Shown: positions 503-29,213, numbered from the stretch's first letter. The stretch: DNA of 64,000 nt from Nanobdellota archaeon (GCA_030611805.1 JAUWPB010000001.1:24765-88764), one strand, 5' to 3'. Notes: generated from the sequence alone by a model not told the origin. A program made the numbers and translations.

Positions 503-1078
503 ATGAGAAAGATAATTTCAAAACAAAAACAAGGAAAAAGAAAGCAAATGATTGTTGGAATAGTTTTAATATTTGTCATGTTTGGGAGTATTTTTGGAGT
601 TATAGTTGGGTCGTTTGGAAAAAAAGATGGTGAACAAAAAGTAAATTATAATGGGTTTGATTTTGTAAAGCAAAGTGATTTTTGGTTTACCGGCAAAGGA
701 AATTTAAATTTTGTTTTTAAATATAATCCGACCGAGGTTGAGAGAATTGATTCTGAGTTAAAGTATATGGAAGATTATTATGGAAAACCGCTTTATATTT
801 TTTCAGAATACAGGGAAGCAGAAATAGAGATTTACAGGAATCTTGACCAGATTGCGCAGAGGATACAACCTGCTTGTTTTGAGCAAGAAGATGATGCAGA
901 AAAATGCGAAGAAAACTGGCCTGTTAAAACCTGCGAAGATAATTTTATTATAATTAAAGAAAGCAACATTACTAAAATAATTCAAAATAAAAGTTGTGTA
1001 TTTATACAAGGTGGGCAAGGAAATTTGACAAAAATCACTGATGCGTTTTTATTTAAGATGTTAGGTATAGCACAATAA
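503..1078 (+). CDS. Hypothetical membrane-anchored protein (N-terminal TM helix, Cys-containing ectodomain)
   Basis: ORF track; single N-terminal hydrophobic helix IVGIVLIFVMFGSIFGVIVG after basic N-terminus. Confidence 0.4.
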   Translation: MRKIISKQKQGKRKQMIVGIVLIFVMFGSIFGVIVGSFGKKDGEQKVNYNGFDFVKQSDFWFTGKGNLNFVFKYNPTEVERIDSELKYMEDYYGKPLYIFSEYREAEIEIYRNLDQIAQRIQPACFEQEDDAEKCEENWPVKTCEDNFIIIKESNITKIIQNKSCVFIQGGQGNLTKITDAFLFKMLGIAQ

Positions 1079-1109
1079 ATCTTAAAAAGGTAAAAATAAG
1101 AAATTAAAT

Positions 1110-1754
1110 ATGGAAAAAGACAAAGAATTAACATCTAAAAAAGACGTTTGTGAAGACGTCTCCTCAGCAACTAAGAAAGAGATTGAAGAGCAAAATAAAA
1201 TGTTAAGAAATATTTTTATTGGAATTGGAATATTTATATTTGTTATTCTATTGGTTGCTTTTTTTATTAATTCTGTAAGACATTTTGAATATAAAGACGT
1301 AAAATTTAAGATTGTTGAAGAGGGAGAGATTATTTTTTATAATACTGCTTTTCCAATGTTTCATTCAATGACTGGTGAACATATTGCAGATTATAATTTT
1401 TACATTAGGAATGACCCGCGAAAATTAGAGAAAGTTCCTTTTAATGGGGAACTTGTTTTATTAGATAATTTAGTAGTTAATATGACAGGGGATTTTCATT
1501 GTGATGGGAACGGCATTATTGCTATTGCAAATTTAGTAAAGCTTTATGAAATTATTGGAACAAATGTTATGAAAGATGAAAACGCAACTTGTGATTCTCA
1601 AGGAAGATATATGTTTATCCAGATACAAGAAGGGGATGAAACAAGCATAGAACAATTTGGACCAGCATGCTATAACATAAATGTTAATAATTGTGAAATT
1701 TTGGAAGCCACAGAAAGATTTATGACTGAAACTTTTGTCAATATTAATAATTAA
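1110..1754 (+). CDS. Hypothetical membrane-anchored protein (same architecture as preceding gene)
   Basis: ORF track; N-terminal TM helix IFIGIGIFIFVILLVAFFI, extracytoplasmic Cys-containing domain. Confidence 0.4.
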   Translation: MEKDKELTSKKDVCEDVSSATKKEIEEQNKMLRNIFIGIGIFIFVILLVAFFINSVRHFEYKDVKFKIVEEGEIIFYNTAFPMFHSMTGEHIADYNFYIRNDPRKLEKVPFNGELVLLDNLVVNMTGDFHCDGNGIIAIANLVKLYEIIGTNVMKDENATCDSQGRYMFIQIQEGDETSIEQFGPACYNINVNNCEILEATERFMTETFVNINN

Positions 1755-5724: not shown

Positions 5725-7743
5725 TTATTGTTTAGAAACTCTCATAGCTACAACTATTATAATTAGTATTAAAAGTATGTTCAATGCTCCGATTGCCCAC
5801 AAGTACCAGTTTCCTTCAGAGATTACATTGCCTGTGATGCCTGCGAATCCATCTGATGCTATTGATTCTATTGAAACTGAAACAGGTTGTTTAATTTCTT
5901 CTCCGCCAGCTGGTGTTACTAAAATATTAAATGATTTTTCTCCTGAAGCTTCCTTGTCTACATTAAATATGATTAAAACTTCTTTTGATTCTCCTGCACC
6001 CAGGATAAATATGCTTGGTTCAATTGTCGGTGAAGATGCCCAGTCTGAATATTCTTCTGCGTTTACTTCATAAGTAACTAACGAACTTCCTGTGTTTGTG
6101 ACTGTTGTTGTAATTACTAATTCTTCTCCTGCTTGTCCGCCAGATTCTAAACTTGCAGAAACCATAGTAGTTTGTTCAACTAAACAACCGCCTTCTACTT
6201 TAAGATAAACATGAAAAATTGCTTCGTCATCTTCTGAATTCTCATAGACATCATTAGATAAAAGATCCTCGTCATCATACACAGTAAACTTAACGGCATA
6301 CCATGCTTCATCCATGTCTTCGGGAATATTAAAAGTAAATTCTATTTTTTCGTTATCCAAAGCACTTATATCTTCTACATCTATTATCTTATTAATTTTT
6401 AAATCACTATTATAAACCAAAATATAAAGTTCGTCTTCATCTATTTTATCATCACCAATATTCCAAGCATCAAATGAGATTGTTACTTCTGCTCCACATT
6501 GAACAATTTCCGGGAATTTAAAGTCATCCAATATAATAAAGTTTTCATCTGTTCTTATTTCTATTTCTTTTGAATCTGAAGCACATGTTTTTTCTCCGTC
6601 AGTTCCTTCTGGTGCCTCATTATCATCTATTTTACCTGTAGCTTTAATATATAATTCATAATTATTATTATCTTTGTTTAAGTCATCTGGGTCTATTTTG
6701 AAATTAATTAAAATTGTTTGCTCATCATCTTCTCCTCTTTTTTCAAGGTCAAAATCATTAGTATCAATAGACATGTCGTCTTCGTCCATTACACAAGTTC
6801 CTTCTTTTACATCAAGCAAGCATATCTGAATTTCAATATCCTCAATTTCCCAAATTCCTTCATTTTCAACTTCTATTTCAATTTCAATTTCATCAAGAGG
6901 ATACCAGTATTCTTCATCGTCTCCAAATCCTTCTTTAACATTAATATCTTTTATTTCAATATCTAACTCCCCAGGGTTTTGACAATCTTCACAAAATGGA
7001 TTTTCAAAACTAACTATTCCTGTAGAAGAAGTGCCATCACTTGCAGTTGCTGTAATTGTAACTTGATTTTCTCCAACTTTTAAATCATCTAAATCAGTTG
7101 TCCTTGTAACTTCAACATCTTGTGTTGCTCCTGCAGCTAAAGTGAAAGGTCCAGAAGGATTAAAAGAAACATCAAAATCTCCTGATTGAGTTAATGTAAT
7201 ATCTGATAAAGGAGTATTCCCCTCATTTTTTATTGTAATAGTTGTTGAATTTTCCCATTCAGGAATTGTTGAGGGAGAGACTGAGAGTTCATATGAATCT
7301 AAAATTGAGACTGAGAAAGCAAGAGTTTCATTAGTTGCAATCGCAGTATCTCCTACATTAATATTTCCTGTAATCGTCCCTGTTTGATATTTATCAAAAG
7401 AAATTGTAGCAGTAATAACTTCTGTTGTTGGTTCTTCTGGAGCTCCTAAAGCAATATAAAAATCATCAAAAGAGAAAGTTAATCCTGTGTGTGAAGAAGT
7501 AAAATTAAATAAATCCCAATATAAATCTCCTGCTATACCAACATTAGTTAAATCAAAAACAATATCAAACGAACCTGCATCGTGAGTAGTATTTTCAGGA
7601 ATAGTATATTCTGTGATGGGGTCTAAATCAACAGCACTAACTGCATTTATAAGAATTACGAAAATTAAAACACCTAAACCGAACAAACTGAATATTTTGG
7701 ATTTCATTTGTGTCATTTCGGAGTTGCGATGGTTTATAAGCAT
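5725..7743 (-). CDS. Large acidic secreted cell-surface protein with C-terminal TM helix + basic tail (possible sortase-type anchoring signal)
   Basis: N-terminal signal peptide (SKIFSLFGLGVLIFVILINAVSAVD), very D/E-rich repeats, C-terminus WYLWAIGALNILLILIIIVVAMRVSKQ. Confidence 0.5.
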   Translation of the reverse strand: MLINHRNSEMTQMKSKIFSLFGLGVLIFVILINAVSAVDLDPITEYTIPENTTHDAGSFDIVFDLTNVGIAGDLYWDLFNFTSSHTGLTFSFDDFYIALGAPEEPTTEVITATISFDKYQTGTITGNINVGDTAIATNETLAFSVSILDSYELSVSPSTIPEWENSTTITIKNEGNTPLSDITLTQSGDFDVSFNPSGPFTLAAGATQDVEVTRTTDLDDLKVGENQVTITATASDGTSSTGIVSFENPFCEDCQNPGELDIEIKDINVKEGFGDDEEYWYPLDEIEIEIEVENEGIWEIEDIEIQICLLDVKEGTCVMDEDDMSIDTNDFDLEKRGEDDEQTILINFKIDPDDLNKDNNNYELYIKATGKIDDNEAPEGTDGEKTCASDSKEIEIRTDENFIILDDFKFPEIVQCGAEVTISFDAWNIGDDKIDEDELYILVYNSDLKINKIIDVEDISALDNEKIEFTFNIPEDMDEAWYAVKFTVYDDEDLLSNDVYENSEDDEAIFHVYLKVEGGCLVEQTTMVSASLESGGQAGEELVITTTVTNTGSSLVTYEVNAEEYSDWASSPTIEPSIFILGAGESKEVLIIFNVDKEASGEKSFNILVTPAGGEEIKQPVSVSIESIASDGFAGITGNVISEGNWYLWAIGALNILLILIIIVVAMRVSKQ

Positions 7744-7785
7744 TTCTATTCTGAAAAAGATAGTTTAAATTAAGAATTTTTAGAA

Positions 7786-8667
7786 TTATTCTTTGCCCTC
7801 TCTTAATCTCATTAGTTCTTTCTCGTCTTCTATAATTTTCTTTTTAGCTTGTTTAATTTTATCCTGATTTTTTATTTTCCTTATATCTTCCTGAGCTTCT
7901 TTTATCTTTTCTTCTGCGTCTTCTATAATTTCTTTATTATCTTTAATCTTTTCTTTTTTCTCAGCCCCAAAGTCATTTAATTTTTGCCCTTTGTTAAAAT
8001 TTTTTTCTAAAATTTTTCGGGGTACGCCTGTGGTGTTAATCCCTTCTTTTGTGTCTAATTTTTTTCTCATTGTTTTTATAGCAAAGAACCCGATTAATAA
8101 AACAAGTATGCCTATAGTATAATAAATTGTTTTCTTTGTAAAAAACCCTTTGTCTCCAAAAATTGCAGAACCAGCAAGTTGAACATAAGTTTGTTGAGAA
8201 GTTGTGGAAACAACTTCGCTCGCCTCTTCAGATTCCATAAAAACTTCTGATTCATTTTCATCAGATGTTATGTTCCCTATTGTTTCATTTAGTGATTCTT
8301 CTGAAACATTTTCTACAGGTGTTTCAATAAACTCAAACCATGCCGGAGCTAATTCAAGGTAAACTGGTGTTCCAACAATAAAATTCTCTGTGTATTTTTT
8401 AAAAACAATTTTTTCCCCATCTTTTTTAACAAATAAAATTAAACCAAATTTAGCTTTATCAGAAGAATAAACAAAAGTGATGTCGCCATATTCATCAGAA
8501 TTATTTTTAAAACTTTCCAAAACTGATGAACTGGAAGCAGCGTATAAAATAGTGAGTTGCACTTCATGGTCTGGCAGTGTTTTAACTTTGATCTCAGTAT
8601 CAACTGCACTTACAATCTGCATTAATAAGAAGAATGTAACCAAACAAAAAACTAATTTTTTCACCAT
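7786..8667 (-). CDS. Secreted/membrane protein with signal peptide, single TM and K/E-rich cytoplasmic coiled tail
   Basis: MVKKLVFCLVTFFLLMQIVSAVD signal; TM IYYTIGILVLLIGFFAI; C-terminal KEKIKDNKEIIEDAEEKIKEAQEDIRKIK. Confidence 0.4.
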   Translation of the reverse strand: MVKKLVFCLVTFFLLMQIVSAVDTEIKVKTLPDHEVQLTILYAASSSSVLESFKNNSDEYGDITFVYSSDKAKFGLILFVKKDGEKIVFKKYTENFIVGTPVYLELAPAWFEFIETPVENVSEESLNETIGNITSDENESEVFMESEEASEVVSTTSQQTYVQLAGSAIFGDKGFFTKKTIYYTIGILVLLIGFFAIKTMRKKLDTKEGINTTGVPRKILEKNFNKGQKLNDFGAEKKEKIKDNKEIIEDAEEKIKEAQEDIRKIKNQDKIKQAKKKIIEDEKELMRLREGKE

Positions 8668-8777
8668 CTTTACTTTTTATAAATATTAAGAATTTATAAA
8701 CTTTTTTGTGTTGAAAGATAATAATAAATAGGGTTGCAAAACATTTATATAATTTAAAATCCTGTTTATTTAAGAAA

Positions 8778-9170
8778 ATGGTGATTAAATCTAAGGAAAA
8801 TTCTATGGGGGCGTGGGCATTTTTAGCAGGAGTCATACTTGCAGTAATGATAGGGGCAAGTGCATCTTCTTTTCTTTCAATTGATTCTATTATGAAATAC
8901 AGCACTCAGATTTATGCGATATTAGTTTTGCTTGGATTGTTTGTTGGATTTTCTATTAAAGTAGCAGGAAAAGATGCCCAAACATTCTTAATCACCGGAG
9001 CTATTTTAGTTATTGTCAGCAGATTTGGTATGGAAAGTGTTACTGGTTCATTAATCGGAATCGGAATCGGCGATGTGGTTTCATCAACATTTGCTGCATT
9101 GTTAGCATTATTTGTGCCTGCAACAATAATTGTAGCATTAAAATCAGTATTCTCAATTACTAAAATTTAA
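8778..9170 (+). CDS. Hypothetical polytopic membrane protein
   Basis: ORF track; 3-4 predicted TM helices. Confidence 0.35.
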   Translation: MVIKSKENSMGAWAFLAGVILAVMIGASASSFLSIDSIMKYSTQIYAILVLLGLFVGFSIKVAGKDAQTFLITGAILVIVSRFGMESVTGSLIGIGIGDVVSSTFAALLALFVPATIIVALKSVFSITKI

Positions 9171-9185
9171 TTTATCTTAACAAGA

Positions 9186-9584
9186 TTACTTGGAGTTTGA
9201 TTTTAATTTTTTTATTATATCTTCCTTGTTTTTTACTCTAATAATGTTCTTCTCATAATCTTTTGGAAATACTTTTGTTTTTTTAATTGGTTTTAATTTC
9301 TCTTCTGAAGCATATTGCCCTCTATGTCCTTTAATTGGGTTTTTTACCTCAACTTCATAAACATAACTTTCTTTTGGTTTTAAGTTTCCTAAAATTACTA
9401 ATTTATTTTTAGATACTCCAAAAGCAGTTTCTCCTTTTAGTGTTTTTCCAATTGCATATAGTGAAGAATGAAGAAATGTCTTAGTTAGAAAAACTCCTTT
9501 TATGTTTTCAAATTCGTTCATTCCTTTTGCTTGTTGAGGTTTTAATAAATCAAGCTTGTGTGGTGAACCATGATATAGTTTCAT
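9186..9584 (-). CDS. Hypothetical protein
   Basis: ORF track only. Confidence 0.3.
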   Translation of the reverse strand: MKLYHGSPHKLDLLKPQQAKGMNEFENIKGVFLTKTFLHSSLYAIGKTLKGETAFGVSKNKLVILGNLKPKESYVYEVEVKNPIKGHRGQYASEEKLKPIKKTKVFPKDYEKNIIRVKNKEDIIKKLKSNSK

Positions 9585-9606
9585 AATTAAAACAAAGGTT
9601 ACTCAC

Positions 9607-10257
9607 TTAAATATTTGTCGTAATCTTTGTGTGGATATTATCACATTCTACTTTGTCTATATTAATTATTCTATTATTATTCATATCCATTCTTGGACAT
9701 GCTGTGTTTACCCAAGAGTCTAATCCAAAGTTTTCAAACTCATTTACATTAATATTATTGCTAAGAAATAAATAGGATTTTTTAGTTTTTATTTTTTTCA
9801 CGAAATCTAAAGCCCTTTTCAAATTTTGCTGACCGGGTTTTGTTGAAACCAGAATTCCAACTTTATTTGCATTAAGAAATTTCACATAAGATGCTTTTTG
9901 TTTTTTTTCAAAGTTTTCAATATCCATTTTAGATATTTTTGTCAGTTGATTATTCTCTAATATATAAACAGGAAATTTTGTTTGAATTGCTAAAGAGATT
10001 GCGTGGAATCTGCCAGACCCGATTAATAGTATGGCTTGCGTGTTTTTTGGAAAATTAGGTCTAGAACAACCTAACACTTGGATAAATTTGGTTATCTTCT
10101 TTTCTTTGATTAGTATATTTTTTATTTCAAAAGCAATATCCTGATATTGAATAGAGTAAGTGATTGCAATTTTTTCAGGAAGTTTTTTAGAAAGAGAAAA
10201 AATTTTAGGTTTGTTTACTTTTGATTTTATTTTTGCCGGTAGGAATAAAGTTTTCAT
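9607..10257 (-). CDS. dph2: Dph2-like 2-(3-amino-3-carboxypropyl)histidine synthase homolog lacking the N-terminal domain
   Basis: QVLGCSRPNF...ILLIGSGRFHAISLAI...KVGILVSTKPGQ...VNTACPRMD match domains 2-3 of archaeal Dph2 (QVLGCN...LFIGSGIFHPLGLAV...VVVACPRVP); no equivalent of domain 1. Confidence 0.55.
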   Translation of the reverse strand: MKTLFLPAKIKSKVNKPKIFSLSKKLPEKIAITYSIQYQDIAFEIKNILIKEKKITKFIQVLGCSRPNFPKNTQAILLIGSGRFHAISLAIQTKFPVYILENNQLTKISKMDIENFEKKQKASYVKFLNANKVGILVSTKPGQQNLKRALDFVKKIKTKKSYLFLSNNINVNEFENFGLDSWVNTACPRMDMNNNRIINIDKVECDNIHTKITTNI

Positions 10258-10290
10258 ATTAGACTGCTAAAGATTTATAAGTTATAAAAC

Positions 10291-10836
10291 TTGTTAAAAT
10301 CAAAAATGAAAATAAGTAGAAAATATTTTTTGGAGGAGAATTTTGAACATTTAATAGAAAGTAATGCTGGTTATGCTCTCTTAATTTTTCAAGGAGCTAA
10401 AGGAAAGCAAGATTTGAGAGAACTATTTCAAATTATAAAAAACCAACCGAATAATAAGAGTATTTGGATTGAAAATCCAAAAAAGGAATATCATTTTTTG
10501 AAAATAATTTCAAAAGAAATTGGAATAAAAAATCTCTCTTCCACAAATTTAACTTATAATTATGTTATGGCTAAATTAGCAGATACTAAAATAAAAACCA
10601 ATTTATTTATTCCCTCACTGGAAAAAATATTCTACAACTTTGATAAACAATCCTATTCATTAAAAAAAGCCAGATTTAATGCCCGACTCCGTGCCTCATG
10701 GTACCACCATGATGGTTTATTGCACATTTGTGCCTCTGTTGAAAATGAAAATTCTGAAGAATATAAATCTACTCTGGGAAACCCTGATTTTCCTTTTTAT
10801 GTAAATAATTTTTGTGTAAAGGAAATCACAGATTGA
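10291..10836 (+). CDS. Hypothetical protein
   Basis: ORF track only. Confidence 0.3.
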   Translation: MLKSKMKISRKYFLEENFEHLIESNAGYALLIFQGAKGKQDLRELFQIIKNQPNNKSIWIENPKKEYHFLKIISKEIGIKNLSSTNLTYNYVMAKLADTKIKTNLFIPSLEKIFYNFDKQSYSLKKARFNARLRASWYHHDGLLHICASVENENSEEYKSTLGNPDFPFYVNNFCVKEITD

Positions 10837-15113: not shown

Positions 15114-15433
15114 GGAAGAAAGAAGACGTGGGGGTTTTTAAAATATTCGGGAAAGGTTTATTTTATTAATTAATTTATCAACTATTCTCTTACTATCACC
15201 ACAATTTCAATTTTCGCAGTTCTAGAATTGCTACTAATTGTCAAAGTTGAATTTTACTGGCTCTTTTTAGAGCTCCAATAAAAGAGCGTGTGGCCCAGCC
15301 ACTTATTAAAGTTAGCTAGGAATATTATAAAGAAAAATTTATTTTTATATTTAACTATTTAAAATTTTGATGGCTTTTTCATATTTTTTATTGATTTCTG
15401 CTATCTGTTTTTCTCTTTCTTTTTGCAAATTAT

Positions 15434-16165
15434 TCAGAGATAATCTTCTAAAATTTTCGGCGCGACGCCTACGGCGTCCAAAACAACCACCCGACCATTG
15501 TCACTGGAATCAGCAAGACTGCCAAACCTGGAATTCAGGTAGTCATTCCTGTTCAAGTAAACCCTCGACAACCCATTCTCTTTTGTGTAAAGAGTTTTTG
15601 TCTGGTTTCCTAATTGAATTGTATTATTTTGATGAGCAAATCTTTTATCATTAATTATTTTTGTATCTTGTCCAATTTTCAAAAGTAAACCATATTTATT
15701 TTTAGAATTATTATCTTTAACTAATTCTAATCCAGAAATTCTTAAGGGATTTTCAGAAGAAAATTCATATTTTTCTTCTTGAACTTGTTTTACTAAATTT
15801 TCTAAAATATATTTGTTAGCATCGTAAGTTGGTATCCCTGTTCTTAAAATTATCTCTCGAACATCTGTGTAAAAAGAGTTATCAAAAAAATTATTTGTAT
15901 CAACAGAAGAATAAATTCTTTCAGTATCTTCTAATAAAATTACTTTTTGGGATTCTGGAAGAGATAAATTTGCTTCATTGTTAAATAAAAAGTTAGAACC
16001 TCGTCCATTTTCACAATCAATTCCATTCATTATTTTTTTGCAAGCTAAACTATTTTCTCCAAATTTTTCTCTTGTTTTTGCTTTTGTTTCTTGATAAATT
16101 TCACTTCCAGCAATAAAATATCTGTCCATTGGAACTTTAACTTTTGGTATTAGTATTTCTTTCAT
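15434..16165 (-). CDS. Hypothetical protein
   Basis: ORF track; 3' end includes GC-rich hairpin gacgcc-tac-ggcgtc. Confidence 0.35.
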   Translation of the reverse strand: MKEILIPKVKVPMDRYFIAGSEIYQETKAKTREKFGENSLACKKIMNGIDCENGRGSNFLFNNEANLSLPESQKVILLEDTERIYSSVDTNNFFDNSFYTDVREIILRTGIPTYDANKYILENLVKQVQEEKYEFSSENPLRISGLELVKDNNSKNKYGLLLKIGQDTKIINDKRFAHQNNTIQLGNQTKTLYTKENGLSRVYLNRNDYLNSRFGSLADSSDNGRVVVLDAVGVAPKILEDYL

Positions 16166-20362: not shown

Positions 20363-20926
20363 TTATCTTATGATTTCTTCTTCTCTGAAAATATGGTCTA
20401 AAATATTATACATTAAATGAAAAGAATTTATAATTAGGACAATATTTCTTGAAGAATTCAATGTTTTATTCCCATGAACAAGATTGCTTCTCACCCTATA
20501 AAGAACTTCAATAATTTCTAATAAATTGCTTTTATCATTAATCCTTATGGAAGGTCTTGTTTTTGGTGCAGGAGTCATATCTATTAATGGTTGATTTTCC
20601 AACTCTTTAAATAAAGCTTCTATCCAAACATTACAAGAATCTTTGAATGTTAAAAATAAATCTTGGTAAGTTGAACAAAAAAATTCTCTTTGTTTCCATA
20701 TTCTTGATTCAGTTGGACTCATCAAACCTATCATGGCTTCAAATGGAACCATAACTGAAACAAGACCTACTGCTTTATCATATGCTTCTGGATTAGGATT
20801 TTTCCCTAAACCTTTTTTTAAATTCTGTTTCGCAGACGCTTCAGACATAAATAATTTTATAAGTTCTATCATGTCATTCTCCAAATAAATATTATTTCTT
20901 ATAATTGTCATCTTCCTCCACACCAC
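20363..20926 (-). CDS. HEPN-like protein (Rx4-6H motif), last gene of RM-linked operon
   Basis: YRVRSNLVHG near C-terminus fits R-x4-6-H HEPN signature; overlaps upstream nuclease gene by 19 nt. Confidence 0.35.
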   Translation of the reverse strand: MVWRKMTIIRNNIYLENDMIELIKLFMSEASAKQNLKKGLGKNPNPEAYDKAVGLVSVMVPFEAMIGLMSPTESRIWKQREFFCSTYQDLFLTFKDSCNVWIEALFKELENQPLIDMTPAPKTRPSIRINDKSNLLEIIEVLYRVRSNLVHGNKTLNSSRNIVLIINSFHLMYNILDHIFREEEIIR

Positions 20927-21555
20927 TCACAACTATCTTTAGGACAATCAGAGTTTAATAATTTAATTGCTTTTTTCCATACTTTCTCTGCACTTTCCAC
21001 ATCAACTTTCATCTTAACTAACTCAGTATCAAAGATAACTTCTCCAGTTGCCATAACTTCTTTGGGAATGTAAAACAATAGGAAAAAATAATCTTCTGTT
21101 TTGTATCCGTTCTTTCTTAAAAGAAAATTGTAAATATTTTGTTGTTGTCTGTAATGTTCTGCTGTGTCCTCTTTTAGTGGATAGCCTCGTGTCTTGTAGT
21201 CCAATACAATCAACTTTTTTCCTTTTACAAGGATATTATCAACTGCTCCGTGTAGTTCGTTTCCATCTTTATCTGTAAAAGAAACACCTTTGAAATTGCT
21301 TTGCCAGATTTTTAATTTTTCTTTATCTGTAAATAATTTCATTCCTTTGCATTCCCCATTCTCGCAAATTTCAGGAGGCAATTTTCCTTGTTCCATAAAT
21401 TTATTAAAATGAACTTTTAGAATTTTATCCATTCCATTTGGAAGGCTTGGGAATATTCCTGCTGGTCGTTTCCAAACTTTATGCTGTGCTAACCAAAAAC
21501 AACGAGGACATTCTTTCATTAGATTTAATGTTGAGGGCGATAGTTTGAATGTCAT
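20908..21555 (-). CDS. Cas4/RecB-like PD-(D/E)xK nuclease with Fe-S cysteine cluster
   Basis: N-terminal CPRC, catalytic GAVDNILV...IVLDYKTRG (D...D-x-K), QQQNIYNF (QxxxY), C-terminal CPKDSCEWC. Confidence 0.5.
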   Translation of the reverse strand: MTFKLSPSTLNLMKECPRCFWLAQHKVWKRPAGIFPSLPNGMDKILKVHFNKFMEQGKLPPEICENGECKGMKLFTDKEKLKIWQSNFKGVSFTDKDGNELHGAVDNILVKGKKLIVLDYKTRGYPLKEDTAEHYRQQQNIYNFLLRKNGYKTEDYFFLLFYIPKEVMATGEVIFDTELVKMKVDVESAEKVWKKAIKLLNSDCPKDSCEWCGGR

Positions 21556-21556
21556 T

Positions 21557-22801
21557 TTAATTGAAAATTATTTCTTTTTGCAATAAATTTTCTATTTTCA
21601 TTGAAGAATTATTTAAGTTTTGATTATACTCTTCTAACTTTTCATAATCTTTGACAATTTCTTTAATGTTGTTATTCAATTTTATTATAGAGATTTTAAT
21701 TATATCTAAAATTTTTGTTAATGGAAGAACAGACAAATCTGAACTTGAAACATATTTTAAAAATATTGGTTCTAAATAATACTTTAAAAACATCAAATAA
21801 ATTTTTTCATCTTCTTCTGAATTTATATTCAGTTCTTTTTTTATTTCATCCTTTAATAATAGAAGCATAGCATTAGTATTTGTTGCATAATTTCCTATTG
21901 GAAGATATTCTAATTTTCCAGCGTCCCCCCTCGTGATTATATGTAACCCCTGCTTCATTTTTACCGCATGTATTTTTTCTTCAAAAGGAACTATTCCATG
22001 AATATTTCTAAATGAACCTGATAAAACATTAATTTTTTCTTTTGAATTTACTAATCCTTGGCTTCTCTTATATATTCCCTCTTCACTTAATGCATCATTT
22101 CTACTGACATATTTTAAAAAATATGAAAGCATCTTTTCAGATTCAAATTGGTTATCAAACTCAAAAGATTTCTCCTTTATTTTTTTTATAACTTCAATTT
22201 TTTTCCTTAAGTTATTTTTTAGATGATATACTCTTTCATATAATTCTAATTGTTTTTTCTGTATTTTTATCTCTGGAACCTCTAAATCTACTTCATTAAT
22301 GATTTTTAACGGAATGGTGGATAACCCTTCTCGATTCACTAAATTACTAAATAATGGATTAAATCTCATATAAAACCATTTTAAATCTAAACCATCAAAA
22401 TTAGAATATTTTAATTTTATTTTAGAATCTTCTTGTTTAAAGAATGTAAAAATTGAGGTAGTTAAGCTAAACAAGGGGTATTTTTCAGAACTTCTATAAG
22501 ATAATTTTCCCGCATTACCACATCTAATCATAGTTATACATCCTTCTTTATTTATGAAATATCTTATTTTATTCTTCTCAATATAATGATTTTTTTCTTT
22601 AATATCTTCTGGAGTTAGAAAATTTGGGACAAAACCAAATAATCCTTCTTTAGAATCTGACCCAGATAGGACAGAAATTTTCTCGAATTTTTCTAAATAT
22701 GGCAAAAATTTGTATGTTTCTCTTTCTGTTAATTCAGGCATATTTTTAGTATTGGCTCCTCGAAAAGGGGTAAACATATCTTTAAATTTGATAATTTCCA
22801 T
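21557..22801 (-). CDS. Restriction-modification specificity (S) subunit with two target-recognition domains (BcgI-B-like / HsdS-like)
   Basis: Duplicated TRD-associated motifs ITMIRCGNAGKLSY and IITRGDAGKLEYLP with intervening coiled-coil spacers. Confidence 0.6.
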   Translation of the reverse strand: MEIIKFKDMFTPFRGANTKNMPELTERETYKFLPYLEKFEKISVLSGSDSKEGLFGFVPNFLTPEDIKEKNHYIEKNKIRYFINKEGCITMIRCGNAGKLSYRSSEKYPLFSLTTSIFTFFKQEDSKIKLKYSNFDGLDLKWFYMRFNPLFSNLVNREGLSTIPLKIINEVDLEVPEIKIQKKQLELYERVYHLKNNLRKKIEVIKKIKEKSFEFDNQFESEKMLSYFLKYVSRNDALSEEGIYKRSQGLVNSKEKINVLSGSFRNIHGIVPFEEKIHAVKMKQGLHIITRGDAGKLEYLPIGNYATNTNAMLLLLKDEIKKELNINSEEDEKIYLMFLKYYLEPIFLKYVSSSDLSVLPLTKILDIIKISIIKLNNNIKEIVKDYEKLEEYNQNLNNSSMKIENLLQKEIIFN

Positions 22802-22802
22802 T

Positions 22803-24884
22803 TTAAGACCCTATTATTTTTTTTAATTCTTCTTCTAATTCTTTTTTGGTGATATATCTTGGTTCGTATGGTCTTAACCAATACTCTGGTAACAAGTTGA
22901 AATAATTTTCTTTAAATAAATTCTTAATTGGAAGAAACATTACTTTCTTCATCTTTACTTCTTCCCCCTTTTCCGTAATCCATGTTACAAATTTTCCATC
23001 ATCATCGTGACCTAACCATCCTCCTTCTAATATTCCTTCTTTCTCTTCACCTTTTGTATTAACCCAACCAGAAATTTCATCATGCAACCAACCATTCCTA
23101 TTATTTCTTAATTTAGTTGGAAATCTTTTATCGGAATTAGCTAACCCATCATTGTCAATAATGTAAATCCAAATCGGATTTTTTTGTTTCTTTGTTTCAT
23201 TTTCACTTCTTTTAGTAAAAAATAAAGCATAAGTTTTTTCTTTAGTATATGGTGCAAAAGCAAATTTTGGTAGAGAAACGATTGCATTAATTTCACATCT
23301 TCCTAAAAGCCATTTTCTAAGAACTCCAAAAGTTGGATTTTCTAAAACACCATCTGGAAGAATTATACATGCTTTACCCCCAATTTTTAATAAATCTAAT
23401 ACCTTACAAAGAAATGCTATTTCTGTTCTATTTGAACTAATTGCATCTGTATTTGCTTTTATTGTTCCATTACCATATGGGGGATTAGTAATAATGTAAT
23501 CGTATTTTTCATTCTTCCATTTTTGTTTTGGTCTCAAGGTATTATCAACAAACATATTAGTATGTCCATCTCCCACAAGAAACATATTCAATTTAGTTCT
23601 TTGGATGTTCTCCTCTCTGACATCTACACCATAAAAACATTCCTTAGAAAGAAATTTTATTGCATCCTTATCTAAAGTTTTACTTACTTCATAATTATTT
23701 TTTAATACTTTAAAACTCTCAGTCAAGAATCCACCTGTTCCACAAGCCAAGTCAAGAATTTTAAATCTCCTATCTTTATTATAAACGATTTCCCCTTTTA
23801 ATAATAGTTTAGAAAATATGTGTGTGTAATGTCTCCTTGTAAAATACTCTCCAAAATCTTTTTTCTCTTTACTTGAGGCGAACATTTCATAAACTGCACC
23901 AAATAAATCAAAACCAGTTCCATGTAAGGGACCCATAGAAGTTATAACATCATATATTTGTTTAACATCAACTTTATCAATTAAAGGATTTTTTCCTGCT
24001 TCTCCAGAGATGTTAACCTTAACAGTTTCCATTAAATCTTTAAATTCGGTGAAGTTAGTTTCTCTCTCAAGTCTTCCAATATACTCAGACAAATTTGCTA
24101 CAATCTTACTTTCATTTTCATCGGAACACTCTGTCCAATAAATCTTAGTTCTATCTTTTTTTGTTTCTATTTGTTCTTTCTCTTCAAAAAATTTGAGTGA
24201 AACAAACCCAATTGTAAAATCAATCTTTTCTTGATTATTCTTGAAATTAATATTCCTATAAATGGTTGCTAATTCCCATAATTTCTTATTAAAAATGGCT
24301 TCAGAAATAGCCGATAGTGAATCAACATTGGTTCTTATGTTATCAAGAAATTTATCTTTATCTAATCTATTTTTAATTAAACGAAATATATCTATTGTTT
24401 GAAATTCTCTTATTGGATTATTATTTAACTTTATTTCTTTCCCTGTTGTAGAATTATAGAAGATGGTTGTTTTACAATTTGTAACAATAAAATAAGGTAG
24501 TTTTAATTTTTTAGATTTTCTCTCTCCTTGGTTTATTGCATCTTTCCATTCCGTATCTCCTACTGAACAGTTATCCTTTACTTCAGAATAAGCAACCAAA
24601 TTTTCTACGAATTGTTTTTGATTATTAGTTTCTTGGTCAAATTCAAATTCTGAAATTAATAGGTCTGGTCTCTTAAAGTCTGTGTACTCTGAAAAGGTTG
24701 TGTCATTGACTATTTGTCTTAAAGGAATACTTAACTGCCCAACTAAAATATCATGGATTAATCTTGTTACTGTTAAGGCTTCTCTCCTTGTCTTCTTTAC
24801 CATATTATAATTAGAATCATTAAGGGTATTTAAATTGCGTGGTTTCATATTTTTACTTTTAGGAGGTAACAAAAATCCTTTCAT
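22803..24884 (-). CDS. Type IIB/IIG restriction-modification enzyme (N-terminal PD-ExK endonuclease fused to gamma-class N6-adenine methyltransferase)
   Basis: PDLLI...SEVKD nuclease motif; motif I ILDLACGTGGFL; motif IV ITNPPYGNG. Confidence 0.7.
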   Translation of the reverse strand: MKGFLLPPKSKNMKPRNLNTLNDSNYNMVKKTRREALTVTRLIHDILVGQLSIPLRQIVNDTTFSEYTDFKRPDLLISEFEFDQETNNQKQFVENLVAYSEVKDNCSVGDTEWKDAINQGERKSKKLKLPYFIVTNCKTTIFYNSTTGKEIKLNNNPIREFQTIDIFRLIKNRLDKDKFLDNIRTNVDSLSAISEAIFNKKLWELATIYRNINFKNNQEKIDFTIGFVSLKFFEEKEQIETKKDRTKIYWTECSDENESKIVANLSEYIGRLERETNFTEFKDLMETVKVNISGEAGKNPLIDKVDVKQIYDVITSMGPLHGTGFDLFGAVYEMFASSKEKKDFGEYFTRRHYTHIFSKLLLKGEIVYNKDRRFKILDLACGTGGFLTESFKVLKNNYEVSKTLDKDAIKFLSKECFYGVDVREENIQRTKLNMFLVGDGHTNMFVDNTLRPKQKWKNEKYDYIITNPPYGNGTIKANTDAISSNRTEIAFLCKVLDLLKIGGKACIILPDGVLENPTFGVLRKWLLGRCEINAIVSLPKFAFAPYTKEKTYALFFTKRSENETKKQKNPIWIYIIDNDGLANSDKRFPTKLRNNRNGWLHDEISGWVNTKGEEKEGILEGGWLGHDDDGKFVTWITEKGEEVKMKKVMFLPIKNLFKENYFNLLPEYWLRPYEPRYITKKELEEELKKIIGS

Positions 24885-26128
24885 TCTTCCACTTCCTTTT
24901 CTATAATAAACTCTCCTCTAATACCCAACTCATTCACTTCTTGAATCACAACACAAATATTATGGCAGAGAACTTTCAAAAGTAATTCATTGATTTGTGC
25001 TTGTTTAATTTTGCTACGAAGATTATCTTTAAATTTAGTTTTAATCATATGAAAAACAGTTTCTACATTACTTCTTTTATGATAATATTTTTTAAAATCT
25101 TCATTCTTATACATAAAATAATAATACATTTTTTTCCAAATTGGTGAACCTCCTGCTTTACCAGTTACATTTTTCTTGAATGGAATGTAGGGAACAGCAC
25201 CTACATTGCTGATAAGCTCTAAGTTCTTTTTTGAACTATAAGCTTTGTCACAACAAACATCACCCATCTTAAATTGCTTAGCTGTTTCATTGACAAGTTT
25301 AGTTAGTTGAGGACTATCATTTTCGTGACCATCTGTAATTTCTGCACTTGTAATAATGTTTGTTTTATTTCCACAAATAATATGGGCTTTCATCCATAAT
25401 CTGTATTTATTTTTTTTACCCCATTTATAATCAAAATATCTTGCAAATCTACAAGTTGAAAAACCAGAGCTATCTGCAGAGAAAGAAGATTCAACAGAAC
25501 TTAGAGGAGAAGAACTAAGTTTAATCAATTCTTTCAAAATTTTTGTTAGTTCTTTTTTTTGCATAAAATTGCTAATGGTGGGATAAGTGCAAACATTCTC
25601 AACTAAACCCATTTCTTTAGCAATTTTCATATCTGACATAAATCTTCTTAATGAAAAAGTAGAATAAACTTTTAATGCAGATGCAAAAACCATTTCTGAA
25701 AAGGGTAATGTTGGTCTACCAAATTTATATTCTGGTTGTTCAATATTTTTACATAATTCTTTTAAAAGTTTTAAGAAAAATAGCTTTTCATTTGTTTGGG
25801 CATTATCATAAGCTTTCCATTTCTGAGAATATCCTATTCTTACTCTCTTTGTTTGAGATATATTTCCCTCTATGTCTATCGTTCTTTGAATAAATAATTC
25901 TACAGCTATTATGTGTTTGCATCTTCCGTGTCGTATCCTACAATCCAGACAATTACATTGTGGTTTATGTCCATTAAAATAAACCTCATAAAAACCTTTA
26001 CCAGATTGAGAAGGAACTCTCCATTTATCTTCAAGCTTTTTTATTTTTAAGTCTTTGGATATTAATTCTCCTCGTTTGTATCGTGTCAATTTCTTCCAGT
26101 TTGTTTTCATAGTATATTCAGGTACCAC
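24881..26128 (-). CDS. SWIM zinc-finger + DDE transposase (IS4/IS5/ISH3-type, DDE_Tnp_1) translationally coupled to the RM gene
   Basis: N-terminal CNCLDCRIRHGRCKH (CxCx_nCxH); DDE region with DVCCDKAYSS and Y-x2-R-x3-E-x6-K signature YHKRSNVETVFHMIK; stop TGA overlaps ATG of RM gene (ATGA). Confidence 0.7.
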   Translation of the reverse strand: MVPEYTMKTNWKKLTRYKRGELISKDLKIKKLEDKWRVPSQSGKGFYEVYFNGHKPQCNCLDCRIRHGRCKHIIAVELFIQRTIDIEGNISQTKRVRIGYSQKWKAYDNAQTNEKLFFLKLLKELCKNIEQPEYKFGRPTLPFSEMVFASALKVYSTFSLRRFMSDMKIAKEMGLVENVCTYPTISNFMQKKELTKILKELIKLSSSPLSSVESSFSADSSGFSTCRFARYFDYKWGKKNKYRLWMKAHIICGNKTNIITSAEITDGHENDSPQLTKLVNETAKQFKMGDVCCDKAYSSKKNLELISNVGAVPYIPFKKNVTGKAGGSPIWKKMYYYFMYKNEDFKKYYHKRSNVETVFHMIKTKFKDNLRSKIKQAQINELLLKVLCHNICVVIQEVNELGIRGEFIIEKEVEE

Positions 26129-26227
26129 CTGTTTATATATCTTTCGGTACCTTAAAGAGAATAGAAAAGCTTATAAATTAACCAGAAGTTATCTAAATAG
26201 ATAAGATATAGATAACATTCAGTTAAA

Positions 26228-26413
26228 ATGGAAAAAAAAGAAAATATCAATGTGAAGCTCACAATCGAACAAAAAGAAATATTAACAAGCTTAATTGGAC
26301 CTATGGGTAGTAGTGAGCCAGAGGTTTTAAGAAGTATTTTTTTAGCATGGTTATCTGAACAAAGGATACTTTCAGAAATAATTAAAAAAAAGATAATTAA
26401 CAAAAATGGATGA
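26228..26413 (+). CDS. Ribbon-helix-helix (CopG-like) small regulator
   Basis: 61 aa; beta-strand NINVKLTIEQ followed by two short helices; first gene of 4-gene overlapping operon. Confidence 0.4.
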   Translation: MEKKENINVKLTIEQKEILTSLIGPMGSSEPEVLRSIFLAWLSEQRILSEIIKKKIINKNG

Positions 26414-26960
26414 AGCTGAACTTGTAGAAAGAAATATGATTTTGTTACTTGGAGCAAAAGAAAGAGCTATCCCTTCTGACCTCCATCTACAAAAGGAGAT
26501 TTTCCTCCTTTCAAATTTTAAAGAAGGAATTTCAGATATTTTCAATTTTCAAAAACATTATCTTGGTCCTTATTCTCAAGTTTTAGATGAATCTCTAAAA
26601 AATCCTGCATATTTTCCAAAAGCATTTGATTTTGATTACAACAAAATTTCATTATCTAAAGATGGTAAAAAAGAATTTTCAAATATGATTAAAAAATTTT
26701 CAAAAGAAAAAAACTTTCAAATTCTTTTTTATTCGCTTAAACTTTTAAGAGATTTATATGATAAACTTACTAAAGAGGAATTAATGTTTCTTATCTATGA
26801 AACATATCCAACATATACAGAATTTTCACAAGTATCTAATAAATTGACTAAAAATGAATTTACACGAAGCAAATTATTAAATAGTATCCTTTCTAAAGGA
26901 TTAATTACCCAAGAAAGATACGAGGAATTAAAAAATGCAAAAAGAAAAATTAATACCTGA
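26406..26960 (+). CDS. Panacea-domain (DUF4065, SocA/GepA-like) antitoxin-type protein
   Basis: LHLQKEIFLLSNF...FNFQKHYLGPYSQVLDESL resembles DUF4065 core (kLqKllYf...f.aw.yGPv...ly). Confidence 0.5.
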   Translation: MDEAELVERNMILLLGAKERAIPSDLHLQKEIFLLSNFKEGISDIFNFQKHYLGPYSQVLDESLKNPAYFPKAFDFDYNKISLSKDGKKEFSNMIKKFSKEKNFQILFYSLKLLRDLYDKLTKEELMFLIYETYPTYTEFSQVSNKLTKNEFTRSKLLNSILSKGLITQERYEELKNAKRKINT

Positions 26961-27459
26961 CACCTCTTTTTTTTCATTCTTCTTGTATAACACTCAAGAA
27001 CAAGAATCTTTAAAGAAAATTTTAAAAGAGTTTTATGTAGAAGTATGCCCCAAGGTTCATAAAGAAATTAATAATTATGTTCCTGAAGATATTGAAAAAG
27101 AATTACATTTTTTCAACGATGAATTAGACTTTTCTGGATTGCTGAAACCACTTTTTTCAGAAGAACAAATAGAAAAAGGAGAACATGGGGTGATTGTATT
27201 AGCTTATTTTAATTATAATCTTGGAATTAAAGAATTTATAATCGTCCTCGATGACAAAGGAGCAAGAAGTTTTATGAAAAATAATTTTTCATATCTTGAA
27301 ATTCTTACTAAATGGACTGCAGAATTTATAAAATATTGTTATCCCAAAATATTTAATAAAGAACAAATATTAGATTTGTTAGATAAAATGGATAAATCAA
27401 CCTTTGCTATTGATAAGGATTCACTAAATAAAATCATTCAGGAAATCCAAAATGAGTGA
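26935..27459 (+). CDS. PIN-domain nuclease (candidate toxin)
   Basis: Acidic quartet placement: LIPDTSFF (D), EHGVIVLAY (E), IIVLDDKGARSF (D-D). Confidence 0.5.
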   Translation: MQKEKLIPDTSFFSFFLYNTQEQESLKKILKEFYVEVCPKVHKEINNYVPEDIEKELHFFNDELDFSGLLKPLFSEEQIEKGEHGVIVLAYFNYNLGIKEFIIVLDDKGARSFMKNNFSYLEILTKWTAEFIKYCYPKIFNKEQILDLLDKMDKSTFAIDKDSLNKIIQEIQNE

Positions 27460-28621
27460 TATTAATATTATTGAAACCATCCAAGATAAAAACTCTTTTT
27501 TTAATATAAAAAGATTCTCCCTTAAAAATCTTGGAAAAGATTTTTCTATCAAAACAATGGATATAAATAATATAACTAAAAAAATTTTTGAGGACAGTAA
27601 GATAATAAAAAATAAAAATATTATATTTGAGAAGAGTAAAATAATAAAAGATTTTAAAAATATAAAAGGGGTTATGGATGAAAGTAATGACTCTAAAATA
27701 AATGATTTTTTTGGTAGGAAAGCTTGGTTAGATGATAAATTTACATTATTCCATGCAACATTGAAATTTAATCCTTATAATTATATAAAAAAAGTTGATG
27801 AAATAAGTGGTTTCTTAAATTATTATTATTCTCATTCTAAATATCTCGTTTTGATTCCTAATGTTTTAAAACATTTCACTCCATATGATGAAGAAGGGAG
27901 GGCATCAAAGACAAAGACAGAAGTTATTTCTATAAATCATTACATAAAGTTAATAGATGAATTATATGAATTTTTTGAACAGATGAATAATAAACCCATC
28001 TTTGTCCCACTCTCACTAAAATTATCAATGAATGAATTAACAGAATTAGTGAGACACTATCTAAAAAAAGAAAGATTTTATTTTTGGATAGATTTTGAAT
28101 CTGCACCTGCTAATTTATCTAATGCTACTCTTGGGGGTAAGATTGGTCAGATTAATCGTTTATTAAGAAATTCTAAACAATTTGATAAAATGATTCTCCT
28201 CGCCACAAATATCAAGAGAGAAATAATCTCCAATTCCAAAGATAATAAAAGCCCTGCCTCTGATATTTTAACCACATTATGTGGTGCTAACATTGTTGGT
28301 GTTGATAGAGACCCTGCAAGGATGTTTAAAATAAAGGAAGGAGAAAAACAAAAGATTATAGAACATAAATCAAGACTTTTTAATGAGCAAACATATTATT
28401 ATAATATAAGGAAAGAACAGAAACCAAACAAGCCTCTTAATGTTACTATAAATTCAGTTAAACTATCAACTGAATTTGATAATCAAAAAAAGAATTTCTT
28501 AAAAGAATCTGGAATTTCAGATTACTTAAAAACAAAAGATATGCTAAAAAATTATTTGGGGGGAAAGATATTAAGGTCTCTACAACCAAGTATAAAAGAG
28601 TTCCAAAAAAAACTTTTCTAA
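27452..28621 (+). CDS. Hypothetical 389-aa protein, last gene of RHH-Panacea-PIN operon
   Basis: ORF track; start overlaps PIN gene stop; no recognisable motif by eye. Confidence 0.4.
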   Translation: MSDINIIETIQDKNSFFNIKRFSLKNLGKDFSIKTMDINNITKKIFEDSKIIKNKNIIFEKSKIIKDFKNIKGVMDESNDSKINDFFGRKAWLDDKFTLFHATLKFNPYNYIKKVDEISGFLNYYYSHSKYLVLIPNVLKHFTPYDEEGRASKTKTEVISINHYIKLIDELYEFFEQMNNKPIFVPLSLKLSMNELTELVRHYLKKERFYFWIDFESAPANLSNATLGGKIGQINRLLRNSKQFDKMILLATNIKREIISNSKDNKSPASDILTTLCGANIVGVDRDPARMFKIKEGEKQKIIEHKSRLFNEQTYYYNIRKEQKPNKPLNVTINSVKLSTEFDNQKKNFLKESGISDYLKTKDMLKNYLGGKILRSLQPSIKEFQKKLF

Positions 28622-28622
28622 A

Positions 28623-28781
28623 TTATCCTTTTGTCAAATAAATTTTATCCTTCTCTGCTTCAGCTTTAAGTTGCTTACCTTCTAATTTTGATTTCTCCAC
28701 AGCTTCCTTAGGCAAAGTCACAATATATTTGTAATACTTAGTATCCTTCACCTTTTTTGACAATACCTTAATAATCTTCAT
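28623..28781 (-). CDS. AbrB/MazE/SpoVT-like swapped-hairpin DNA-binding protein (52 aa)
   Basis: Hand-translated MKIIKVLSKKVKDTKYYKYIVTLPKEAVEKSKLEGKQLKAEAEKDKIYLTKG; pattern ...ItLPKe..ekl.l.eG..l..e.e.dkiyL.k; convergent with 389-aa gene. Confidence 0.4.
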   Translation of the reverse strand: MKIIKVLSKKVKDTKYYKYIVTLPKEAVEKSKLEGKQLKAEAEKDKIYLTKG

Positions 28782-29213
28782 AAAATAATAAGGTACCGAT
28801 TATTTATAAAGCTTATGGTACCTGAAGGAAGAAATATAAGTAATGAAAAACATATGTTAAAATGAGAAAATCAATATCAAAAAGTTTTGGAAGAGCTAAG
28901 TTTAAGGTAGGAATAAGTAAAACATTAAGCCCATATGCTATGGTAAGACTTAAGATTTCTAAAAATACTTCTGCTTCTGCCGATACAGGATTTAAAGGAA
29001 ATAGAATAAGAGTTAGTGCATGGAAAGATAATCTCAAGGCTACATTAGAACATAATAAAACTACAAAACAGACTAAAATAAAAGTTGATAATAAAAAAGC
29101 ACACTATTAGACTTTTTTAACAAGAGCTACTTATTTAACAAAGCCAAACACAAGAAAAACCTTAAAAACCTTCTTTTTCTTGGATTAATTAATAAGGAAT
29201 ATTAAAAAATAAA

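Follow-up and report, generated by a model that had tools for sequence, protein, structure and literature searches.

We analysed a 64,000-nucleotide (nt) stretch of DNA from a Nanobdellota archaeon (hereafter the window) and found in it an apparently undescribed conserved archaeal operon, whose core of three genes (g2, g3 and g4; the triad) lies together with a small upstream gene (g1) in four overlapping plus-strand open reading frames (ORFs) at 26228-28621. We read the triad, with a probability of about one half, as a translationally coupled toxin-antitoxin (TA)-like defence or addiction module. This reading is based on the conservation of the triad, the DarG-like g2, a fusion of g2 to g3, the PIN residues of g3, the basic, TGT-fold g4 with its conserved polar residues, the variable regulator, the defence and mobile neighbours and the patchy rarity of the module. 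An earlier reading, made from the DNA sequence alone (the sequence-only reading), had proposed a candidate novel TA or defence module beside a restriction-modification (RM) island. It is right in part: a conserved, unannotated operon of TA-like or defence-like character is supported. The four genes, with lengths from the ORF table, are:

26228-26413, plus strand: g1, 61 amino acids (aa), small ribbon-helix-helix (RHH)-like putative regulator
26406-26960, plus strand: g2, 184 aa, protein resembling the DarG C-terminal domain (DarG-CTD) and Panacea, predicted neutraliser or adaptor
26935-27459, plus strand: g3, 174 aa, COG2405/DUF3368-type PIN-like nuclease, predicted effector or toxin
27452-28621, plus strand: g4, 389 aa, basic TIM barrel modelled with the tRNA-guanine transglycosylase (TGT) fold, predicted nucleic-acid-directed enzyme

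The coordinates of the four ORFs are exactly those given by the sequence-only reading, and consecutive genes overlap by 8, 26 and 8 nt (g1/g2, g2/g3 and g3/g4). Hidden Markov model (HMM) scans of all window ORFs yielded no above-threshold match for g1-g4 in Pfam, NCBIfam, PADLOC or PHROGs, and single-sequence searches of the PDB found no match.

The triad is conserved across archaeal lineages

Related loci (numbered L001, L002 and so on) were retrieved by a pattern-based scan of 185,579 GTDB species genomes, which gave at least 45 loci, and exact-protein look-ups added more; the triad was then counted by iterative HMM searches on all their ORFs. We considered a locus informative when it was non-redundant and had enough upstream sequence (n = 43). 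The g2-g3-g4 order was kept in 41 of these, with median gaps of -8 and -7 nt, a recurrence that places the arrangement far beyond chance. The neighbourhood search proposed for the 389-aa gene was thus informative: its homologues occur together with g2 and g3 essentially always.

Two informative loci depart from this order. In L035, g2 went undetected, and in L037, a Nitrosopumilaceae chromosome, g4 is split in two and both g2 and g3 are missing; this copy is decayed, as would fit a dispensable accessory module. The two g4 fragments of L037 lie at 5956-6606 and 7604-7882, separated by about 1 kb of inserted DNA.

The triad spans at least eight archaeal lineages. Its DPANN-type hosts include Nanoarchaeota, Woesearchaeota, Pacearchaeota, Aenigmatarchaeota, Parvarchaeota and Micrarchaeota, and among the other hosts are Promethearchaeota (Asgard), Nitrososphaerota, Bathyarchaeia, Thermoplasmata, Archaeoglobi, Thermococci and several methanogens. 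The outliers are one 3-kb contig binned as Cloacimonadota and one locus record titled Paceibacterota. No g4 relative was found in the viral contigs, phage records or plasmid records searched.

The most distant g4 relatives (profile E ~1e-17, without Pfam matches) form a sister subfamily, in which g4 is likewise preceded by homologues of g2 (E 4e-27 and 5e-24) and of g3 (E 4e-14 and 4e-11). From the retention of the triad at this distance it follows that its third member, the TGT-fold gene, is ancient and obligatory. The sister g3 orthologues carry precomputed DUF3368 matches, and a direct scan gave the PF01850 PIN family at E 1.1e-3 and DUF3368 at E 0.014, both below the gathering thresholds. 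The sister g2 orthologue ends in a UPF0175 domain (E 1.3e-6, 28.4 bits against a gathering score of 27.9), which occupies the position of the SHOCT-like tail of the window g2. UPF0175 has been found exclusively with COG2405 PIN proteins, predicted TA toxins "including new three-component systems" (PMC5499597; PMC2701414), and its presence at the end of the sister g2 therefore ties g2 and g3 together as a partner pair. In addition, g2 and g3 form a single ORF (519-1727, plus strand) in L048, a 4.4-kb metagenomic contig; in its close relative L046 they are separate overlapping genes.

Gene 4 is predicted to adopt the TGT fold

The absence of database matches extends from g4 to its relatives. None of the 75 close homologues of g4 in the database has a precomputed Pfam domain; essentially all of them come from archaea, although the source of one labels it Paceibacterota, and a Pfam scan of nine distant relatives was likewise empty. 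The family is real but small: a profile search of 1.84 billion cluster representatives returned 303 members, 117 of them at E<=1e-30, and we therefore describe it as rare and patchy.

The sequence-only reading had seen no recognisable motif in g4 and had suggested AlphaFold and Foldseek, and it is by this route that a fold became recognisable. The AlphaFold2 (AF2) model, built on 45 sequences, has a pLDDT of 90.9 and a pTM of 0.90; it consists of an N-terminal beta-hairpin and a (beta/alpha)8 barrel, with a helical C-terminal subdomain. The top Foldseek match was QTRT1 (E 3.5e-6, TM 0.52/0.55). TGT-superfamily structures were the top matches by two programs, at identities of 6-10%, and tRNA TGTs scored above DpdA. 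According to this model, g4 is a TIM barrel of the tRNA-guanine transglycosylase fold that represents an unannotated family. An endonuclease IV-like assignment was ruled out by its lower TM-scores and by the lack of a conserved His cluster.

The TGT motifs DSGGFQ and GxDxFD are unrecognisable in the g4 family, which has conserved positions of its own. Across 162 full-length members, the polar residues K34, E60, N179, K181, D271, R308, Y315, Y317, N334, E341 and K362 are near-universal, as is P136, and G283 is invariant. D271 is kept in 155 of the 162, and 159 have an Asp at position 214 and/or 280, a count drawn from related sequences and not an independent statistic. Among the 26 members with Asn214, 23 have Asp280, so that positions 214 and 280 appear, from the alignment, to act as a linked pair. 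This carboxylate pattern, together with the near-invariant D271, is what would be expected of an active site and not of a scaffold. Judging from the order of secondary-structure elements in the model, the conserved residues would sit at the C-terminal ends of neighbouring barrel strands. The family is also basic (median pI 9.3, net charge about +12), and g4 is the best conserved protein of the triad, with a mean column identity of 41% versus 34-36% for the other two.

These features bear on two readings in which the TGT-like protein has another task. In a modification-restriction system of the Dpd type, g4 would insert or exchange a base in host DNA, g3 would restrict unmodified DNA and g2 would be a specificity or regulatory subunit. 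Such a system would agree with the basic character of g4, with the winged-helix-like features of g2 and with the RM genes found beside the module, here and elsewhere. We nevertheless consider it quite unlikely, since g4 lacks both the zinc site and the canonical TGT motifs, tRNA TGTs outscore DpdA as its structural match, the PIN/UPF0175 ancestry is that of TA modules, and genes for a DpdB-like ATPase, DpdC or QueC/D/E/FolE are not conserved nearby (among the 25 most frequent families of our flank census, described below). It is very improbable that g4 exerts a Type VII-like control by modifying a protein (g2 or g3), as the TGT-like Cap10 does with the CD-NTase in the type IV cyclic oligonucleotide-based antiphage signalling system (CBASS). 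The better structural match to tRNA TGTs and the absence of a QueC-like partner from the same 25 families argue against it, and the strong positive charge of g4 fits nucleic acid better.

Gene 3 and gene 2 resemble a toxin and its partner

In an alignment of 43 g3 homologues, E44, G82 and D106 are invariant and D9, E83, D107 and T128 near-invariant. The motifs DTSFF and VLDDKGARSF, from which a PIN protein had been proposed, are both present, and the proposal gained from the conservation of the acidic positions D9, E44, E83, D106 and D107. The layout GE...LDD..AR...GT.G is one that we take to be the COG2405 pattern. Members of the COG2405 group carry two to five acidic residues (Matelska et al. 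2017). The Pfam check suggested for the four window proteins returned nothing above threshold, g3 itself having no match to PF11848 or PF01850; it did reveal sub-threshold matches among the g3 homologues, namely DUF3368 (PF11848) in 6 of 43 (best E 8e-5), PIN in 1 of 43 and PIN_12 in 1 of 43. In PADLOC, g3 matched PDC-S70 (1.8e-4). On the strength of these motifs and matches, we classify g3 as a putative COG2405/DUF3368-type PIN-like protein that keeps the acidic active-site pattern.

The g2 protein consists of a main domain with an embedded winged-helix-like element, followed by a short SHOCT-like C-terminal tail; a SHOCT_2-like C-terminal motif was found in 13 of 40 homologues. Its AF2 model (pLDDT 93) matched chains 7yk3_B/D over the full length in Foldseek (prob 1.00, E 1.7e-3, TM 0.46-0.48), and the next match had E>1. 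A 51-sequence g2 profile likewise retrieved 7yk3_B from the PDB (E 0.0072); this chain is the C-terminal domain of DarG, solved in complex with DarT from M. tuberculosis. Weak PADLOC matches were to the DarG C-terminal part (2.6e-5) and to the candidate PDC-M19A (2e-6).

DUF4065 proteins have been described as homologous to the DarG C-terminal domain, at similarly marginal E-values (PMC13621843). The link between DarG and Panacea rests on that study, because the DarG fragment taken from our HMMER alignment gave no PF13274 match in a Pfam scan. The g2 homologue of Thermococcus peptonophilus, which UniRef names "Antitoxin SocA-like Panacea...", gave none either, and a remote relative, P0181, matched PadR (2e-7) and SocA_Panacea (E 0.0055, under the gathering score). 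We conclude that, within the DarG-CTD/Panacea superfamily, g2 represents a deep-branching archaeal group that is overlooked by the current HMM, and that it is Panacea-like at the superfamily level only. The Panacea assignment made from LHLQKEIFLLS...FQKHYLGPYSQVLDESL, a motif that is indeed present in g2, thus stands in part: membership of PF13274 was not borne out for g2 or its 40 homologues, but by both profile and fold the best solved relative is the DarG C-terminal domain. By analogy, g2 is predicted to neutralise the adjacent putative toxin by binding it directly; the context is its overlap with g3, the one g2-g3 fusion and the UPF0175 tail of the sister subfamily.

The same relative also suggests a different division of labour, modelled on DarTG, in which g4 would be a toxin that modifies or excises bases in DNA or tRNA, g2 would neutralise g4 by nucleic-acid mimicry, and g3 would serve as an additional effector or as an accessory. 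Nucleobases within nucleic acids are the substrates of DarT and of TGT-family enzymes alike, g2 has no solved relative other than the domain with which DarG binds DarT, and g4 is basic, apparently catalytically constrained and the best conserved of the three proteins. Toxins, however, usually evolve faster than g4 does. Moreover, g2 adjoins and overlaps g3, to which it is once fused, and not g4, and the UPF0175 tail of the sister g2, belonging to a dedicated PIN-family partner, points to a contact between g2 and g3. We hold this to be the foremost of the alternatives and still an unlikely one.

A variable regulator and neighbourhoods with defence genes

The best PDB profile matches of g1, the RHH proteins ParG and KacA, were non-significant (E 0.59 and 0.79), and homologues of g1 were detected in four loci only. 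The small ORF that adjoins g2 resembles RHH proteins in some loci, AbrB/MazE proteins in others (MazE/AbrB E 5.8e-4 in L014) and a winged helix-turn-helix protein in one. The view of g1 as an RHH member of the operon needs correction in that the RHH call comes from sub-threshold matches and the gene lies outside the conserved core; given its presence in four loci only and the other regulator folds that occupy the slot elsewhere, we rejected it as a core component. TA and defence operons typically exchange their small regulators in this way.

Several copies of the triad are flanked by defence or mobility genes. We found a C5 methylase, ICEA and a transposase around L001, a MazE/ParE pair and an integrase around L002, and XPB, DUF790 and an N4/N6 methylase around the Asgard locus L003. 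The Methanobacterium locus L004 is accompanied by a type IIG RM system, a CD-NTase with Cap15 (CBASS) and an integrase. In Thermococcus peptonophilus (L053, on a 1.85-Mb contig), where the triad occupies 8001-10520 and the g2 homologue is A0127_05655, the flanks hold a DUF1156 methylase, DUF499, an SNF2 helicase (Hma-like) and an HSDR_N protein. L006 has metabolic genes only. A census of 143 flanking ORFs revealed many matches to RM, MADS, PbeA, Hma, AriA, LmuA, cyclase, integrase and transposase families and no further conserved partner; families of the DpdB, DpdC and QueC/D/E types were absent from its 25 most frequent families and from the annotated contexts.

A canonical bacterial-type TGT of 405 aa is encoded divergently beside the triad in L017, a Nanoarchaeota metagenome-assembled genome (3404-4621, minus strand). 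It keeps DSGGFQ, GIDSFDC and the zinc cysteines; the case stands alone and may be coincidental.

One could ask whether the triad is a housekeeping complex for tRNA processing or modification instead of a conflict system, given that g4 has a fold common to tRNA-modifying TGTs, that some loci lie among core genes and that a canonical TGT adjoins one of them. We attach the least probability of all to this view, and regard it as scarcely credible. The g4 family is too rare in the cluster representatives, and the loci from the pattern scan are few among the species genomes and scattered over many lineages; a decayed copy exists, the regulator gene is variable, and the flanks carry integrases, transposases and defence genes.

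A model for the triad and its weak points

For the model that follows, we infer the binding partners, the toxicity of g3, the trigger, and the substrate on which g4 acts as well as its chemistry. The COG2405/DUF3368-type PIN protein g3 would be the nuclease effector. Its protein partner and neutraliser would be g2, restraining it through the tail at the UPF0175-equivalent position; with its DarG-like domain, g2 may in addition fill the groove in which g4 or g3 would hold nucleic acid. The obligatory third enzyme, g4, is likely to bind nucleic acid and to excise, exchange or recognise a base, and this action would sense or mark a target, or hand it over to the PIN nuclease. The operon would be autoregulated by a small DNA-binding protein that is freely swapped, here the RHH-like g1. 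Most likely, the module serves mobile archaeal islands in abortive infection, defence or addiction.

A bolder version of this model, which we regard as possible but on balance unlikely, would make the triad a new class of archaeal immune system. Here g4, through a re-invented two-carboxylate site on the TGT fold, would recognise a base in invader DNA or in tRNA, excise or exchange it and thereby license cleavage by the PIN protein, and the DarG/Panacea-like adaptor would restrain both until infection. If true, the triad would work as a sensor and effector by base flipping, a mechanism unlike those of RM, Dpd, DarTG and CBASS.

Several observations weigh against the TA-like reading and the assignments on which it builds. 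For g2, PF13274 (SocA_Panacea) was matched neither by the protein itself (E<=1) nor by any of 40 homologues (E<=0.1). The protein also resembles winged-helix regulators of the PadR/MarR type and could be a plain transcription factor instead of an antitoxin. The L048 fusion, seen on a single metagenomic contig, could be genuine or a one-base assembly error. For g3, the PIN assignment comes from weak HMM matches and motifs, and its profile found no PIN chain in the PDB by sequence. The g4 family profile found no TGT there, both profiles returning chance matches only (eL22, calsenilin). An hhalign comparison of the g4 family with the canonical TGT of L017 gave a probability of 0.5%, and the kinship of g4 with TGTs therefore rests on structure only. 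No conserved Cys was found in 45 or in 162 g4 sequences (median of two Cys per protein), and the zinc Cys/His cluster is absent; the equivalence of g4 residues to the catalytic Asp pair of TGT, D102/D280, is guessed from strand order only. Finally, several triad loci sit among housekeeping genes, and the neighbour census is heterogeneous.

Relation to known systems

The closest known counterparts of g2 and g3 are the predicted type II TA pairs of UPF0175 (COG2886) with COG2405/DUF3368 PIN proteins. In both cases the partner comes first and the PIN gene second, the genes overlap and the hosts are mostly archaeal; g3 falls in or next to that PIN family, and the sister g2 ends in UPF0175 itself. 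Unlike in those pairs, the partner described here has an extra DarG-CTD/Panacea-like domain of about 150 aa, the tail in the window subfamily is SHOCT-like with no recognisable UPF0175, and there is an obligatory third gene with the TGT fold, often together with a separate small regulator gene.

The module also shares with PanAT systems (Kurata et al. 2022, PMC8832971) the pairing, by overlapping genes of one operon, of an antitoxin-like domain with a toxin-like enzyme. The g2 protein has a Panacea-like ...QK..F.....F....GPYS... core and matches the DarG C-terminal domain, as DUF4065 proteins do, but unlike PanAT antitoxins neither g2 nor its homologues match PF13274. Accessory third genes of PanAT each occur in a small fraction of genomes only (PMC8832971), whereas the third gene described here is essentially invariant, and the part of the supplementary text of that study available to us contains no transglycosylase among PanAT systems.

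The resemblance to DarTG is confined to g2, for which the DarG C-terminal domain (7yk3) is the best and only significant solved relative. That domain binds directly to a DNA-base-modifying toxin and inhibits it, occupying the nucleic-acid groove. Unlike DarTG, the operon has no macrodomain and no DarT (DUF4433) ADP-ribosyltransferase, and the partners are a PIN protein and a TGT-fold protein.

With the TGT superfamily (bacterial and eukaryotic TGT, ArcTGT, DpdA and Cap10), g4 shares the overall fold, and it differs from it in lacking an HMM or profile-profile signal, a zinc cluster and QueC or DpdB partners, and in having a helical C-terminal subdomain. Precedents for a TGT fold in defence are DpdA, in Dpd DNA modification, and Cap10, in type IV CBASS, both only recently recognised. 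Three-component systems in which a PIN protein is combined with a helix-turn-helix protein and a DUF955 protease (Matelska et al. 2017) provide a further parallel, in that COG2405 PIN proteins take part in three-gene TA-like operons; the third component there is a zinc peptidase and not, as here, a TGT-fold TIM barrel.

In the literature searched under the themes of TGT-like/DpdA, PIN, YwgA and DUF3368/UPF0175 proteins, the g2-g3-g4 triad was undescribed. We conclude that the g2-g3 pair varies a TA logic already known from UPF0175-COG2405 and from Panacea-type systems. Its combination with an invariant TGT-fold enzyme, and the family of that enzyme, were absent from Pfam, NCBIfam, PADLOC and PHROGs and from the literature searched. 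An unannotated TGT-fold family, without any Pfam, NCBIfam or PADLOC model, is thus firmly tied to a PIN/antitoxin pair in most of the major lineages of archaea, among them Asgard and DPANN, and the DarG-CTD/Panacea antitoxin superfamily is extended to a deep archaeal branch unseen by current HMMs. Archaeal defence systems are under-explored. A role of g4 as a base-directed sensor or effector, if true, would make this a new kind of system and a third, independent recruitment of the TGT fold to immunity, widening base-directed defence chemistry. Thermococcus peptonophilus, which we believe to be cultured, would be a convenient experimental host in which the hypothesis would be directly testable.

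The transposase-like gene, the RM island and paired GGTACC sites

The immediate surroundings of the four genes in the window include:

24881-26128, minus strand: IS5-family transposase-like gene with DDE and SWIM-finger domains (DDE_Tnp_1 E 1.8e-24; IS5 E 1.3e-33)
26121-26151, no strand assigned: GGTACC-N19-GGTACC pair around a TTTATATA box in the divergent promoter region between the transposase-like gene and g1, candidate operator
28623-28781, minus strand: convergent AbrB/MazE-like gene, 52 aa, whose stop codon begins 1 nt past the g4 stop
28792-28822, no strand assigned: second GGTACC-N19-GGTACC site, around TTTATAAA, just upstream of the AbrB-like gene

The convergent 52-aa gene was recovered from the ORF table as predicted. 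The four genes had also been thought to diverge directly from the RM operon; instead, the divergent neighbour of g1 is the transposase-like gene, so that the RM genes lie behind it, away from the shared promoter. The stop of the transposase-like ORF overlaps the start of an N6-adenine methyltransferase gene (693 aa) by 4 nt (24881-24884), followed by an S-subunit-like gene and a PD-(D/E)XK nuclease gene (RM genes 20908-24884). This overlap suggests that the transposase-like gene is co-transcribed with the three RM genes. Either the transposase has been domesticated, or its insertion captured the promoter of the RM operon.

The island extends over about 20.4-28.8 kb, with FKBP and FtsZ genes on one side and L40e, M50 peptidase and TYW1 genes on the other, and its G+C content (about 24-29%) is similar to that of the remainder of the window. 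The RM system is atypical, the best-scoring models for its methyltransferase being MADS mad2 and type I. The 414-aa protein at 21557-22801 (minus strand) is weakly S-subunit-like (PADLOC Specificity_I, E 2e-4), and a 187-aa ORF at the left end of the RM island (20363-20926, minus strand) has no family match.

The transposase-like gene occupies the same position in L001, L009, L012, L023 and L025 and is recurrent in DPANN-type loci. The GGTACC-N19-GGTACC motif, each copy bracketing a TATA-like box, occurs exactly twice in the 64-kb window, against an expectation of 0.01. It is found at the matching promoter position in L001, L012, L023 and L025, which share the transposase: L001 (4671-4701 and 7348-7378) and L025 (3089-3119 and 5648-5677) have two sites each, L012 (4653-4685) and L023 (4705-4735) one each. 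The second site is conserved nearly base-for-base in L001 and L025. From this distribution, the pairs may represent a shared candidate operator, perhaps for the AbrB-like protein. The AbrB-like gene (MazE_antitoxin E 5.7e-4, under the gathering score) is in the same position in L001 and accompanies the module in only some of the loci; together with its site it has a DNA identity of about 80% in L001 and L025 and of 66% in L023.

Conservation across these loci is mosaic, with 76-85% aa identity for the transposase and only 37-61% for g2 and g4 of the module in between (L001, L023 and L025). Here another explanation deserves consideration, namely that an IS5-type transposable unit carries the module as cargo for its addiction or stabilisation, which is compatible with the TA-like reading and does not exclude it. 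In the window and in the five loci named above, the transposase-like gene is divergent and lies about 100 bp from the module, the GGTACC-N19-GGTACC sites are held in common, and DNA homology between loci stops sharply at both flanks, at the transposase stop codon and just past the right-hand GGTACC site. TA pairs are reportedly embedded beside the transposase in Tn3-family transposons. Most lineages, however, carry the triad without this transposase, which is also far more conserved than the module; terminal inverted repeats around the unit were looked for and none was found, and the overlap of the transposase stop with the methyltransferase start leaves no room for an IS end. Taken together, we judge a cargo role improbable.

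Elsewhere in the window, an Rfam RT-16 RNA match (68.8 bits against a gathering score of 50), with no reverse transcriptase gene among the neighbouring ORFs scanned, was detected at 15161-15320 on the minus strand, between a NusG/Spt5 gene and an unannotated 243-aa ORF (15434-16165).

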